Origin: Candidatus Methylomirabilis sp.
Lineage (GTDB): Bacteria > Methylomirabilota > Methylomirabilia > Methylomirabilales > Methylomirabilaceae
Length of the DNA stretch: 24,722 nt
Direction of reading: 5' to 3'
NCBI GenBank assembly: GCA_041498975.1
Contig: JBGQJI010000028.1
Coordinates: 1-24,722 of the forward strand
This document shows, in pieces, positions 16,923-22,744 of this stretch. The notes beneath the pieces were generated by a model. It made no database searches, was not told the origin of the DNA, and saw only the letters and a list, made by a program, of their open reading frames with translations. Numbering within the stretch: position 1 is the first letter of the stretch; each line of letters begins with the position of its first letter. The translations under genes and the position numbers were made by a program.

Positions 16923-18431
16923 TTATAAGAGAGATTCTCGTTCGGCACAAGAACGTGTTGAAGGATTCAGCGCCCCCTCGGCGGCTTCCCCCATTTGCGC
17001 CAAGGCCAGGTCGTTCAGGAGTGCGTCGGCAGCCACCTCGGCGCTGTGAATCGAGTCAGGAATCCCGATCCCGCGGAACGCATTCCCGGCGAGTTTGAGT
17101 GTTGGCCATCGGGCCAGCCCTAGCTCCAGTGCCGCCACGCGAGCCAGATGCCCAACGTGGTACTGCGGCATCGAGCGCGGATGCCGCGCCACGTGGCTCC
17201 ACAGCGGGGCGGCTCGGATGCCCAAGAGGTCGGTCAGGTCGCGGCACACCGCGGCCAATAACGTACGATCGTCCCAGCCGAACGGCTCCGGCTGCAGCGC
17301 CCCGCCCGCAAACACCCGCAACAGGACGTGGCCTGCGGGCGCCCGGTTCGCAAACTTCACGCTGCTGAATGAGCAGGCGATCATGGCGCGTCCCTCACAC
17401 GCCGGGACCACGAATCCAAACCCATCGAGCGGGTGGGGGATCTGCTCCCTCCGATAGGCCAGGTTCACCGTCAGGGACGACGCATAGGGGATCGCCTCAA
17501 GCTCCCGAGCGAGACCTCCATCGAGATCGCGCATCAGGGCGGCAGCCTGGAACGCCGGGAGACCCAGGATGACCCCGTCGGCCTCCAGGCTCGTTCCGTC
17601 CCCCAGTCGTACGGTCCAACGCTCCGCCTTTCGTGCGATCCCGGCGACCGGACAGCGAAGGCGCACTGCGCCGTCCGGCAGCCGCCCCTCCAGGGCATCG
17701 ACGAGCGTTTGGAGGCCGTCCTCCAGGGTGGCAAACAGGCTGTACCGTGCTCCGCTGTCCCCTTCTCGATCGAGAGGGACTCTCGACTGCTGGCGCCGCA
17801 TCGCACGGATGATGCTGCGATCTCGCCGTTCCATTTGCAGGAACTGCGGCATAGTGGCCATCAGGCTCAGCCGCTCCGGGTCCGCCGTGTAGATCCCGCC
17901 GACCATCGGTTGAGCCAGCCAGTCAAGGGCTTCTCGCCCGAACCGCCTGCGCACGAACGAGGCCAGGCTTTCGTCGGCCAGTGGGCGCCCCCGCGGCAGG
18001 AGCAGGTCCAGGGCGGTTCGCGCCTTGCCGCGCCACGACATCAGGTCGGACCGCAGAAACGGCCAGATCCGCGTCGGCGCAAGCAACAAAAATCCCTCCG
18101 GGACGGGATGCAGCTTTCCGCGGCGGACCACGAACGTCCGCCGGTGGCCCTCCGTGGTCCCGATCAGCCGTTCGCCCAGACCCAGACGCTTGACAAGATC
18201 CAATGCCCACGGCTTGTTGGTGATAAAGGCATCCGGTCCCGATTCCAGGATGAAGCCATCCCGACGCACCGTGCTGATCACGCCCCCCAGGCGTGGCCCT
18301 GCTTCGAGCAGGAGCAGCTCGAAGGGCAACCGTTCGGTGTGGCGCCGTTCCATCAGCCGGTGCGCGGCAGCCAGGGCGGTGATCCCGCCGCCGACCACGA
18401 TGATGCGCTGGACTGAGCGGCTCTGTTCCAT
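16923..18431 (-). CDS. hemY: HemY-type proto/coproporphyrinogen oxidase
   Basis: IIVVGGGITALAAA FAD-binding motif, LEAGPRLGGVI, ESGPDAF, GGIY, MPQYHVGH and GIGIPD. Start set to ATG 18431. Confidence 0.93.
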   Translation of the reverse strand: MEQSRSVQRIIVVGGGITALAAAHRLMERRHTERLPFELLLLEAGPRLGGVISTVRRDGFILESGPDAFITNKPWALDLVKRLGLGERLIGTTEGHRRTFVVRRGKLHPVPEGFLLLAPTRIWPFLRSDLMSWRGKARTALDLLLPRGRPLADESLASFVRRRFGREALDWLAQPMVGGIYTADPERLSLMATMPQFLQMERRDRSIIRAMRRQQSRVPLDREGDSGARYSLFATLEDGLQTLVDALEGRLPDGAVRLRCPVAGIARKAERWTVRLGDGTSLEADGVILGLPAFQAAALMRDLDGGLARELEAIPYASSLTVNLAYRREQIPHPLDGFGFVVPACEGRAMIACSFSSVKFANRAPAGHVLLRVFAGGALQPEPFGWDDRTLLAAVCRDLTDLLGIRAAPLWSHVARHPRSMPQYHVGHLARVAALELGLARWPTLKLAGNAFRGIGIPDSIHSAEVAADALLNDLALAQMGEAAEGALNPSTRSCAERESLL

Positions 18432-18484
18432 CACTTTCTTCAGACCCCTCGAACGGTCTCTGTAGGTGACCGGAAATCTGTCGC

Positions 18485-19420
18485 TCAACCTTGCCGCACG
18501 CGCTGGCGCACCAGATCTGCCAGCGCGCGGATATAGAGAAGATGATCGTTCACCGTGCTGGCCCGTCGCAGTTCGAGCCCGAGCGCGTCGGCCTCCGCCT
18601 TTGCCTCGACATCGAGATCGAACAGCACCTCGACGTGATCGCATACGAATCCGATGGGGGCCAATACCGCCGATCGGCACCCCTCGGCCGATAGCTCCCG
18701 CAGCACGGCGCTCACGTCGGGCTCCAACCAGGGTTGACGTGGATCGCCGCTCCGGCTCTGGTAGGCGAGCGACCACCGCGGGTGCCCCAAGACCTCCGCC
18801 ACGAGCCGGCAGGATTCCTGCAACTGCTGGACGTAGGGGGATGCGGTCGCCATCGAGGTTGGAATGCTATGGGCCGTGAAGACCAGCGGCGTACGACGAC
18901 GGCGCTCGAGCGGGATCTCGTCAAGCGGCAAGCGGATCTGCTCCGCCAAGGCCGCAATGAAATCCGGGTGATCGTAGCAGGGCTGGATGTACTCGACTTC
19001 CGGCGCCTCCGGCCCGGCGGCCAGCAGGGCGTCGGTCACCGCTTTGACGTACTTCGTCCAGCTCGCAGCCCCGGAATCGTGCGCGGCCATGATGACCCCG
19101 ACCGCGCGCCGCACGCCGTCCTGAATCATCTTCTCCACCGCCTCGCCCACCAGGGGGTGCCAGTATCGCATCCCCACGTAGACCGGAAGCCTCGGTCCCT
19201 TGCGGTCCAGCAGCTCTGCCAGTCTCTCCGCCTGCCGGAACGTCAACTCGTTGATCGGTGACTTGCCCCCGAGCGCTTCGTAGTGATGGGCCACTTCTTC
19301 CAGACGCCCGGGCGGGACCGGCACACCTCGAAGCACGTTGGCCAGAAACGGACGAATCTCCTCCGGCTTCGTGGGGCCTCCGAAGGCGACCATCAAGACC
19401 GCGTCGAACGGCTCAGCCAT
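18485..19420 (-). CDS. hemH: Ferrochelatase
   Basis: FGGP, GGKSPIN, GMRYWHP, FTAHSIP, YQSRSG..WLEPD and PIGFVCDHVEVLFDLD. ATG 19420 lies just after the hemE stop. Confidence 0.95.
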   Translation of the reverse strand: MAEPFDAVLMVAFGGPTKPEEIRPFLANVLRGVPVPPGRLEEVAHHYEALGGKSPINELTFRQAERLAELLDRKGPRLPVYVGMRYWHPLVGEAVEKMIQDGVRRAVGVIMAAHDSGAASWTKYVKAVTDALLAAGPEAPEVEYIQPCYDHPDFIAALAEQIRLPLDEIPLERRRRTPLVFTAHSIPTSMATASPYVQQLQESCRLVAEVLGHPRWSLAYQSRSGDPRQPWLEPDVSAVLRELSAEGCRSAVLAPIGFVCDHVEVLFDLDVEAKAEADALGLELRRASTVNDHLLYIRALADLVRQRVRQG

Positions 19421-19421
19421 T

Positions 19422-21362
19422 TCACCTCCGCGTCGCTTCGTGCACGAAGTCGATGAGGGCGCGCAGGTGGTCCACTGGGGTTTGCGGCAGCACGCCGTGG
19501 CCGAGATTGAAGATGTGGCCGGGGCGGCGGGCGGCCCGCTCCAGGATTCGACCGGCTTGCCGTCGAATCTCAACAGGGTCGGCAAACAACGCCACCGGGT
19601 CCAGGTTGCCCTGCACGGCTACCCCAGGGCCGAGGCGGGCCCACGCGTCACCCAGGTCCACTCGCCAGTCCAGCCCGATCACGTCTCCACCGGCCTCCCG
19701 CATCAGCGGCAGGAGCGAAGCCGTGTCGGTCCCGAAGTGAATGACTGGCACCCCCGGCGTCAGGCCTGCGATCGTCTGTCGCGTGTGTGGCAGGACGAAC
19801 TCGCGATAGTCGTCAGGACTCAGGCAGCCGACCCAGCTATCGAACAACTGCACCGCCTGCGCCCCCGCGGCGATCTGGCCATTGAGGTAACTGGATACCG
19901 CCGCTGACAGCCGTTCCATCAGGGCATGCCAGGCTGTCGGATCCCGATACATCAGCGTCTTGGTGTGTTGATACTGGCGCGAACCGCCGCCCTCGATCAC
20001 GTACGAGGCCAGGGTAAACGGCGCACCGGCGAACCCGATGAGCGGGATCGCCGGCGGGAGGGCCGCGCGCGCCAAGCGTACCGCTTCGAAGACGAACGAC
20101 AGCGATTCTTGCGCATCGACCGGCCGAAGTTTCTTCACATCAGCGCTGGTTCTTACCGGGTGGTGGATGATCGGCCCATCGCCTTTCGTGAACTCGAGCC
20201 CGATTCCCATGGGCTCCACGACCAGCAGAATGTCGGCGAAGATGATCGCGGCGTCCACCCCGAGTCGCTCTGCCGCGGTCACCGTCACCTCAGCCGCCAG
20301 ATCGGGCCGGTGGCACAACTCAAGAAATGAGACCTTGGCCCGGATCTCTCGATATTCGGGCAAGTATCGCCCGGCCTGACGCATGATCCAGATCGGGGTG
20401 TAGGGCGTCGGCTCCAAGCGGCATGCTTTTATGAATGGACTTTCCCTCAGCGGCGCTGAGCCTCGCTCCTCTCGAACCTCGGGCCTCGAACCTCGCACCG
20501 CGCTCGCTCTCTTGATCCGGCGCAGCGCGCGGGCATGACGCGCGGCGATCATCACCAGATGGCCCATCTTCGGATGTTCCGGCTCCAGGTCCACGATCAG
20601 GCCATGCTCGCGCAGGGTTTCGCTGCAGGTGGGACCGATCGACGCGACGACCGTGTCGGGAAGCGCCGCCCTCAGTGACTCCTCCAACCCGGCTTCCGCC
20701 GCCACCTGCAGCAGATGATCCACCTGGACGGAGGTGGTGAAGAGGACCACGTCGATCTGCCGCTCGATGATGGCCATGATCGCCCGCTGAAGCGGCCCGC
20801 GATCCTCCGGCAATGCCCATCGATAGACGGGGACCTGCATGACAGAGGCGCCTCGAGCCTCTAGCCCTGCAAGTAGCTCCGGGTTGCTGCGCCCATACTC
20901 CTGCACCGCCACGCGCCGACCCTGAAGCGGGATGGCCGCCTCGTCGAGCGCGCTCAGGAGCTCGCGCCAGGTATTGGGCTCCGGGACGGCCAGCGCGATC
21001 GGCACGCCCAGTTCGCGCAGCACGGCCTGAGGCTTCGGGCCTCGGACGACGGTCGGGATCCGGCCGAGGGCCGCGAGGAACTCCGCACGCGGGAAGGCGG
21101 TTTCCACCGCGGCAACCAACGCGCGCGTGCCAACCCCGGTCAGCAGGACGACCGTATCGATCCGCCCGGCCAGTAATTCTGTGGCGAACTGCAGCGCAGC
21201 CGGGTTGTCTTCCAACGGCACCTCGCGCACAGCGGGCGCCGGGATGGGGGTCCCTCCCTGCCTGGTGATCATGTCGGCCATGGCGGTGGCCATGCGACTC
21301 TCGAAGGTCACCACCTTGAGGCCGGTCAAGCCGGTCATCGTGGGAGCGACTACCTGCTCCAT
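19422..21362 (-). CDS. hemE: Fused uroporphyrinogen-III synthase (HemD) / uroporphyrinogen decarboxylase (HemE)
   Basis: N-half is HemD-like (FESR, LLTGVG, RGPKP, VAVQEYG, VYRWALP, FTTSVQV, SIGP). C-half is HemE (PIWIMRQAGRYLPEY, DAAIIFADIL, GFAGAPFTLASY, QLFDSW, QGNLDP, FNLGHG). One continuous frame. Confidence 0.93.
   Translation of the reverse strand: MEQVVAPTMTGLTGLKVVTFESRMATAMADMITRQGGTPIPAPAVREVPLEDNPAALQFATELLAGRIDTVVLLTGVGTRALVAAVETAFPRAEFLAALGRIPTVVRGPKPQAVLRELGVPIALAVPEPNTWRELLSALDEAAIPLQGRRVAVQEYGRSNPELLAGLEARGASVMQVPVYRWALPEDRGPLQRAIMAIIERQIDVVLFTTSVQVDHLLQVAAEAGLEESLRAALPDTVVASIGPTCSETLREHGLIVDLEPEHPKMGHLVMIAARHARALRRIKRASAVRGSRPEVREERGSAPLRESPFIKACRLEPTPYTPIWIMRQAGRYLPEYREIRAKVSFLELCHRPDLAAEVTVTAAERLGVDAAIIFADILLVVEPMGIGLEFTKGDGPIIHHPVRTSADVKKLRPVDAQESLSFVFEAVRLARAALPPAIPLIGFAGAPFTLASYVIEGGGSRQYQHTKTLMYRDPTAWHALMERLSAAVSSYLNGQIAAGAQAVQLFDSWVGCLSPDDYREFVLPHTRQTIAGLTPGVPVIHFGTDTASLLPLMREAGGDVIGLDWRVDLGDAWARLGPGVAVQGNLDPVALFADPVEIRRQAGRILERAARRPGHIFNLGHGVLPQTPVDHLRALIDFVHEATRR
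20471..20498. repeat. Degenerate heptamer tandem repeat (CTCGNNC x4) in the HemD-HemE linker
   Basis: CTCGAAC CTCGGGC CTCGAAC CTCGCAC. Confidence 0.55.
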
Positions 21363-21512
21363 GCCATATCTCTCCAGCGGCCCCGCAGCCGCGTTGATGG
21401 CCTCATTCATTCCATTCAGTCGGAGTGGCAATCAATAGTATACGTGCGGGCGCCAGGAAGCGCCATACCAAATCGACCATTCTCACGAATCACCCGGGTC
21501 ATGGGAACCGGC

Positions 21513-21542
21513 CTCGGCGACATTAGTCTCGGCGACATTAGT
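21513..21542. repeat. Perfect 15-bp tandem duplication
   Basis: CTCGGCGACATTAGT at 21513-21527 and at 21528-21542. Confidence 0.9.
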
Positions 21543-21543
21543 C

Positions 21544-21572
21544 TTGACTTGGAGGAGAAAGAAAGTTATCAA
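21544..21572 (+). promoter_or_regulatory. sigma70-like promoter upstream of the structured RNA
   Basis: TTGACT (21544-21549), 17-nt spacer, TATCAA (21567-21572); predicted start near 21579-21581. Confidence 0.55.
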
Positions 21573-21579
21573 GCCCTAC

Positions 21580-21831
21580 TGAGGGATGCTGGGTGGCCGT
21601 GGCGCTTCGCGGAGGGGCTTGGACCTCCCGCTTTACAATCAGGTAGTGTAGATGCTTAACCACTGTCGTGGGTCAGTCCGCGTGGCAGGCCGGGATTAGT
21701 CGAAAGAATGCCCGGCCGGCTCTATGACATCGATGCGCGTTGGGCAGCCCGTGCCTGCCTCCGGCTGGTCGGCGGCAACAACCTCGCCATATGCTTGTGG
21801 GATCTCTCAGGCGCACAGGTGCTAACCCTCA
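21580..21831 (+). ncRNA. Candidate rod-shaped ncRNA (6S/Ms1-like or novel), or structured leader of the EamA gene
   Basis: Seven nested helices found by manual pairing, with the 5' and 3' ends paired (TGAGGG/CCCTCA), a central bubble, many G-U pairs favouring the + strand, and T5 at 21835-21839. Confidence 0.55.
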
Positions 21832-21865
21832 CCGTTTTTAGCCTCTGAGCCCAGTGACGAACCCA

Positions 21866-22744
21866 ATGAGAGACTTAGACCTTCGGGCCGCCGCGCTTGC
21901 CCTTCTCCTGGCCGCGCTGTGGGGGGCCAACCCCGTCGCGATCAAGATCGGCCTGGTGGATGCTCCCCCGCTTCGCCTGGCGTGGATGCGCTTTGTCCTG
22001 GGCGGGCTGCTGAACCTCGCCTGGGGCTCCTGGACAGGAGCACTCGTGAGTTTGAAGGTCCAGCGACACGAGTGGCGTCCCCTCGCTATTCTCGGCCTCC
22101 TCTTTACGGTTCAGATTGGTCTGCTGAACATCGGCACCAACCTCACCTCGGCAAGCCGGTCCACTGTGCTTCTGAACGCCTACGCGGTTCACACTGTCGT
22201 GATTGCACACTTCCAGATCTCGGGGGATCGCCTGACCATCCGGAAGTTGCTGGGCACCCTGATCGCCTATGCCGGGATCGTGTTGCTCTTCGGCCCGGAC
22301 CTCTACGGCAGTAGGGTAACCCTCCTGGGGGATCTCCTCGTCTCGGTCAGCGCGCTCCTCCTCGGGGAGCGGACAATCTACCTTGCCCGAGCAGTGCAGC
22401 GCATGGATCCCCTGAAGCTTCTTCTTGCCCAGGCCGCCGTCGGCACGGTCTCTTTCTTAGCATTGAGCCTTTGGGTCGAGGCAGATGCGCCCTATCAGTG
22501 GACCATACCGCTTACCCTCGCGGTCCTTTACCAAGGCCTGGTTGTGGCGGGCTTCAACTTCACCGCCAGCCTGTGGCTCCTCAAGCACTACCGACCGAGC
22601 GCGCTTGCAGGCTTCTTTCTCACCACGCCGATTTTCGGAGTCCTTCTAAGCGCGGTCTTGGTGGGGGACCCGCTGACCGGGACGCTGCTCCTGTCGAGCC
22701 TCCTCGTGGCGGTCGGGATTGGCCTCACCAGCCGTGCGGCCTGA
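21866..22744 (+). CDS. DMT/EamA family transporter
   Basis: LWGANPVAIKIGL..PP..LAWMRF, ~10 TM helices in a two-repeat layout, and TPIFGVLLS..GDPLT. Start 21866, or GTG 21854. Confidence 0.9.
   Translation: MRDLDLRAAALALLLAALWGANPVAIKIGLVDAPPLRLAWMRFVLGGLLNLAWGSWTGALVSLKVQRHEWRPLAILGLLFTVQIGLLNIGTNLTSASRSTVLLNAYAVHTVVIAHFQISGDRLTIRKLLGTLIAYAGIVLLFGPDLYGSRVTLLGDLLVSVSALLLGERTIYLARAVQRMDPLKLLLAQAAVGTVSFLALSLWVEADAPYQWTIPLTLAVLYQGLVVAGFNFTASLWLLKHYRPSALAGFFLTTPIFGVLLSAVLVGDPLTGTLLLSSLLVAVGIGLTSRAA

Follow-up and report, generated by a model that had tools for sequence, protein, structure and literature searches.

In a Methylomirabilis-like (NC10) bacterium, the spacer between the divergent hemDE and EamA-family genes is most probably a divergent promoter region combined with the EamA 5' leader, interrupted by a lineage-specific indel. 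The rod-shaped RNA that had been proposed for this site is probably neither a selected structure nor a separate RNA gene. The window, that is, the whole stretch of 24,722 nt that we analysed, is one contig (C28) of a 2.68-Mb assembly (G000) that comprises 241 contigs and is 84.9% complete.

The spacer measures about 500 nt, and the genes on its two sides are transcribed away from each other:

19425..21362, minus strand: hemD-hemE fusion (uroporphyrinogen-III synthase plus decarboxylase; Pfam HEM4, 4.8e-37, and URO-D, 1.1e-131)
21866..22744, plus strand: EamA-family (drug/metabolite transporter) gene (Pfam EamA, 2.1e-29, in two stretches)

The hemDE fusion encodes about 646 aa and was found, full-length or partial, in 17 of 19 congeners. 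Its longest open reading frame reaches a TTG at 21431, and alignment with relatives suggests the ATG at 21362 as the likely start. It heads a minus-strand row that continues with a ferrochelatase (18485-19585) and a protoporphyrinogen-oxidase-like flavoprotein (16923-18776). One 223-nt contig from an RNA run (X24) matched hemDE at 21188-21409 with 95% likeness; it was the run's only match, and the stretch of the proposed RNA had none. On the right, EamA begins with the ATG at 21866. One congener has an ortholog (87% at the amino acid level) that adjoins the same spacer; the remaining EamA matches, in two congeners and at a second locus of G000, were paralogs at 39-42%. In the outgroup congeners (L036 400-1152 and L031 400-1152, both minus strand), it is a TerC-family membrane protein, not EamA, that lies opposite hemDE, across a spacer of about 350 nt. 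Because the outgroups have TerC at this position, the EamA gene and its promoter are specific to a small clade that includes G000.

Four features lie in the left half of the spacer:

21437..21442, minus strand: TATACT, -10-like hexamer of the putative hemDE promoter (from alignment with two outgroup spacers)
21513..21542, no strand assigned: 15-nt perfect tandem duplication, CTCGGCGACATTAGT twice, private to this lineage (repeat search)
21544..21572, plus strand: promoter-like TTGACT-N17-TATCAA (TTGACT at 21544-21549, TATCAA at 21567-21572)
21573..21648, plus strand: conserved 5' part of the EamA leader, holding the left arms of helices P1-P4 of the proposed rod

The sole spacer block common to the outgroups, TTTG.T.T.GCGCTT...TATACTA, stands beside hemDE (21437-21475, minus strand) and is likely the hemDE promoter, conserved across the genus. 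The block that contains the plus-strand motif, GTCTTGACTTGG..GAGAAAGAAAG.TATCAAGCC, was kept in four of four spacer sequences, and in the sister clade roughly 80 nt separate it from the EamA ATG downstream. Since the block is kept and stands directly before EamA in the relatives, an EamA promoter is its simplest reading; judged by its match to the motif, TTGACT-N17-TATCAA is probably that promoter. A promoter consensus scan of 21200-22100 called none; it demands a -10 hexamer with T as its sixth base, which TATCAA does not have. Directly upstream of the -35-like hexamer lies the duplication of CTCGGCGACATTAGT, which is present as a single copy in three relatives. Hence, slippage-type indels do occur in this spacer. 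The leader part downstream of the promoter shows 77-81% identity in two congeners. We also observed, in one congener (L002 28-117, minus strand), a plus-strand frame that begins upstream of the promoter block and runs into the EamA ATG, in register with the gene owing to three extra G residues (translated by hand). This frame is probably not coding, as it ends sooner in the other two relatives.

The original prediction had read the sequence downstream of TTGACT-N17-TATCAA as an RNA of about 250 nt, folded into a rod of nested helices with a central bubble and a branched apex. The elements from which it was drawn are real. The promoter motif is present at 21544-21572, the arms of P1, P2, P3, P5, P6 and P7 are in place and complementary, P4 is gapped as claimed, and a T5 run is found at 21835-21839. 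The rod as a whole did not fold better than chance: 21575-21840 (plus strand) gave -107.2 kcal/mol against -107.7 +/- 4.6 kcal/mol for dinucleotide shuffles (z +0.11), 106 of 200 shuffles folded at least equally well, and the minus strand gave z +0.94. Among the nested helices, the inner P5-P7 held up, with pair probabilities of 0.8-1.0, whereas the outer ones did not (P1 about 0.12, P2 about 0.30, P3 0.00). When the proposed helices were forced (the gapped P4 was not enforced), the energy was -96.2 kcal/mol, or 11 kcal/mol worse than the minimum free energy (MFE) of -107.2. In the MFE fold, 21579-21587 pairs not with the proposed CCCTCA but with AUCUCUCAG, at about 21803-21811 by manual count. 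The T5 run lies about 12 nt from the nearest small hairpin of that fold. An intrinsic-terminator scan of 21200-22100 returned 0 terminator-like sites, so no mark of a discrete 3' end precedes EamA.

Comparison with relatives divided the rod into two parts of different standing. We searched the 435-nt spacer in 60 relatives, including 19 congeners. It matched in 2 of the 19 congeners, at 81% and 77% identity, and only over query positions 1-217 (window 21432-21648). The matches end at position 217 because the following stretch is missing there:

21649..21856, no strand assigned: 208-nt lineage-specific segment, with the P1-P4 right arms and all of the inner hairpin

In the two congener spacers and in a metagenome contig (L025) found by scanning a metagenome collection with the promoter block, CACGTAGTG is directly joined to ACGAGCCCAATG, the EamA start. 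In the window, CAGGTAGTG at 21640-21648 is followed by 21649-21856 and then by ACGAACCCAATG from 21857. The segment is thus absent from each of the three orthologous hemDE/EamA spacers recovered at full length (L002, L003 and L025), all of which carry the left half, promoter included. A contig from a further run (X16), 85% alike, has a loose end before 21853, TTCACAATCACGT, that shows the same segment-less junction. Identity in the spacer is 77-81%, against about 85% for the flanking coding DNA.

P1-P4 therefore pair a conserved leader (left arms) with lineage-private DNA (right arms), and they are not a conserved structure. We found no conserved homologue of the rod and no covariation, its right arms lying in the segment that the relatives are missing. 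The leader part that the relatives do share gave no covariation support either (RNAalifold term +0.31; a double change in 1 of 19 pairs) in an alignment of four sequences, three of them close. Both the ordinary folding energy and the lack of a conserved homologue or covariation speak against the predicted RNA. We conclude that the rod reflects chance pairing, at 61% GC, of the conserved leader with the private segment: it is an artefact that arises when complementary hexamers on either side of a lineage-specific indel are joined in GC-rich DNA. A cis-regulatory leader for EamA was the weakest of the three alternatives offered. In its plain form, a putative regulatory role aside, it survives, a 5' leader being the most likely identity of the sequence. 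A conserved riboswitch or cis-regulatory leader was not found: the orthologous EamA leaders of L002, L003 and L025 do without the segment, and the terminator scan revealed no expression platform of that type.

Might the spacer still hold an independent small RNA gene, either a second, divergent 6S/Ms1-like RNA or a member of a new noncoding RNA class? A promoter-like motif does lie at the right distance, the complementary segments allow a bubble-bearing rod to be drawn, and some bacteria have two 6S RNAs. Against this, the whole window contained no Rfam match at gathering score (Rfam 15, whose 4227 models presumably include Ms1). At E<=10, the only rows in 21400-21900 were CRISPR-DR52 (E 0.27), SNORD94 and SNORD88, all at noise level, and no 6S row was among them. 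The genome carries a canonical 6S RNA at another site (G000:C27:14409-14595, minus strand; locus L056 1501-1687), where RF00013 scored 82.2 bits against a cut-off of 46.4 over the full model, positions 1-187. Moreover, the candidate shows no energy excess, its outer helices are improbable, no terminator was found, and half of the rod, including the right arm, is absent in relatives that retain the promoter directly before EamA. We regard a small RNA gene at this site as extremely improbable.

The CRISPR-DR52 row (RF01365; minus strand, 21670-21710) was pursued separately and rejected. Its 20.5 bits fall short of the cut-off of 50, a different genomic site scored higher (23.7 bits), and sub-threshold matches occurred in 13 of 14 control genomes. 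We detected no CRISPR repeat array in the assembly or at two class-genome loci with short matches.

The 208-nt segment itself is a genuine part of the genome. The tetranucleotide AGTG stands before it (21645-21648) and again at its end (21853-21856), and both junctions were bridged, with 0-1 differences, by contigs of two other sediment runs (X7 records 22 and 23; X12 records 5 and 6). These contigs exclude an assembly chimera; the runs may share a campaign with the source sample and so do not count as independent populations. Folded alone, the segment gave z -0.30, and its GC content is 61.1%, compared with 61.8% for the genome.

Several origins for the segment were considered. Local duplication was rejected: the best alignment to the left spacer scored 20, a value reached by 99 of 300 shuffles. 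A gene fragment was rejected as well, since none of four open frames tested rose above a Pfam cut-off. The only Pfam row in these frames was Dimer_Tnp_hAT (E 0.12; 12.7 bits, cut-off 21.4), and a 62-aa frame at 21660-21845 had no longer homologue (30 candidates, none of which scored). Capture of foreign DNA, or insertion of a small non-autonomous mobile element, with a 4-bp target duplication of AGTG would explain the clean presence/absence pattern and the AGTG at both junctions, and the hairpin-forming interior resembles the folding of miniature elements. We nevertheless judge such an origin quite unlikely. No terminal inverted repeats join the ends of 21649-21856, and blastn with words of 7 and 9 found no second copy in the segment's own assembly, the next best match being 20 nt; at 84.9% completeness, a copy may have been missed. 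In 251 class genomes there were only chance matches of 19-38 nt (E 0.001-0.01), and blastn against phage and plasmid collections gave no match to the segment. Exact 20-mers were found 0 times in genome contigs (1 pattern) and 0 times in viral contigs (2 patterns), a weak test that one mismatch defeats. The open frames lack a family or homologue, and the GC content is that of the genome. Finally, a slippage deletion in the sister clade would account for a 4-nt repeat just as well.

Was the segment gained in this lineage or lost in its sister? In a maximum-likelihood tree of hemDE DNA, G016, G002, G014 and L025 formed a tight clade to which G000 was sister, with 100/100 support. The tree had 15 rows, including L025 at 42% fill; 14 full or near-full loci of 21 were used and the seven partial ones omitted. 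Three of G000's four close relatives are known to be without the segment, and the contig of the fourth, G014, stops before the spacer. One event suffices for the indel, insertion or deletion alike, and the outgroups cannot root the spacer, TerC taking the place of EamA in them. We lean slightly toward a deletion between AGTG repeats in the sister clade rather than an insertion, because the segment is compositionally native and orphan and has a 4-nt repeat at its borders, in a spacer where a private tandem duplication of 15 nt is also present. As G000 is sister to all segment-less sequences, the segment could be ancestral and functional and have been lost once.

Within the segment, one part of the proposed structure deserves separate treatment:

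21664..21777, plus strand: 114-nt imperfect hairpin with a branched apex (P5-P7 and the apical hairpins of the proposed rod; from the fold)

Folded alone, 21660-21781 (plus strand), boundaries picked after the fold had been seen, gave -59.9 kcal/mol against -50.1 +/- 3.7 kcal/mol for shuffles (z -2.62), and 3 of 200 shuffles did as well. The centroid was identical to the MFE structure, and the minus strand gave z -0.90. The hairpin has 41 pairs: 29 G-C, 6 A-U and 6 G-U. In a sliding scan of the 24.7-kb window on both strands with a step of 10, 44 of 4,922 windows of 122 nt were at least as stable in raw energy, most of them GC-richer coding DNA. By these folding measures, the hairpin appears unusual but not exceptional. 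Its plus-strand excess, which beats 197 of 200 shuffles and is clearly better than that of the minus strand, is the pattern that would be expected of an element acting at the RNA level. A covariance model of the hairpin (R1) found only the hairpin itself in its own genome and a single match, with E 0.056, in 100 relatives. With the segment in one lineage only, missing covariation amounts to no data and is not evidence against the hairpin.

Could the segment, its hairpin in particular, act in cis as a functional, lineage-specific part of the EamA leader? Such an element could be an mRNA-stabilising structure, a structure that modulates translation or transcription, or an undescribed ligand-sensing leader. 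The strand difference in z and the agreement of centroid and MFE are in keeping with it, as are the G-U pairs and the position of the hairpin, downstream of a conserved promoter and ahead of the EamA start. We still consider it unlikely, given that the orthologous EamA genes of the sister clade manage without the segment, no Rfam family matched, the covariance model had no relatives beyond the one E 0.056 match, windows of the same length were equally stable elsewhere, and there was no terminator-like site of the kind an attenuator would use. Very unlikely, in our estimate, is the related proposal that the segment represents a structured RNA module, gained recently or retained in this lineage alone, whose plus-strand-specific hairpin controls EamA expression or is processed to a stable small RNA.

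A divergent promoter region with a long EamA leader remains the reading we prefer. Under this model, the promoter block near 21437-21475 would serve hemDE on the left, and TTGACT-N17-TATCAA at 21544-21572 would most likely drive EamA, promoter use and read-through being presumed here. In this lineage the EamA leader would be about 286 nt long because it contains the extra 208-nt segment bounded by the AGTG direct repeat. The segment is predicted to fold by itself into the stable 114-nt hairpin, which may affect EamA expression.

More generally, the eye can assemble a long rod from 61%-GC intergenic DNA that has no excess stability, and one sister-genome comparison splits such a rod into a conserved promoter and leader and a private indel. 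The Methylomirabilis group comprises nitrite-dependent methane oxidisers. If the hairpin is functional, it would be a modest case of lineage-specific leader evolution in an uncultured member of such organisms; if the segment is an RNA module, it would show, in a single lineage, how a regulatory RNA arises or disappears between sister Methylomirabilis species.

Among known systems, 6S RNA (RF00013) resembles the candidate in that a long imperfect helix interrupted by a bubble can be drawn for both, and a sigma-70-like motif lies upstream. The candidate differs in having no match to the model, in a rod that is neither thermodynamically favoured nor conserved, and in its size of about 250 nt against a model of 187 positions, and the genome's real 6S RNA is on another contig. 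Like the Ms1 RNA of actinobacteria, the candidate falls in the range of about 250-300 nt and can be drawn as a rod, but no Rfam family matched it, its host is an NC10 bacterium and not an actinobacterium, and it lacks conservation. MITE-like elements are likewise short and insert-like, flanked by a 4-nt repeat and able to form a hairpin inside, whereas this segment has neither terminal inverted repeats nor another copy anywhere searched. An ordinary divergent promoter region with a long 5' UTR shares with the spacer its two divergent genes with a conserved promoter block beside each, a spacer that evolves slightly faster than coding DNA, and indels bounded by short direct repeats; what sets this spacer apart is that its private segment is fairly long (208 nt) and holds an unusually stable 114-nt hairpin.
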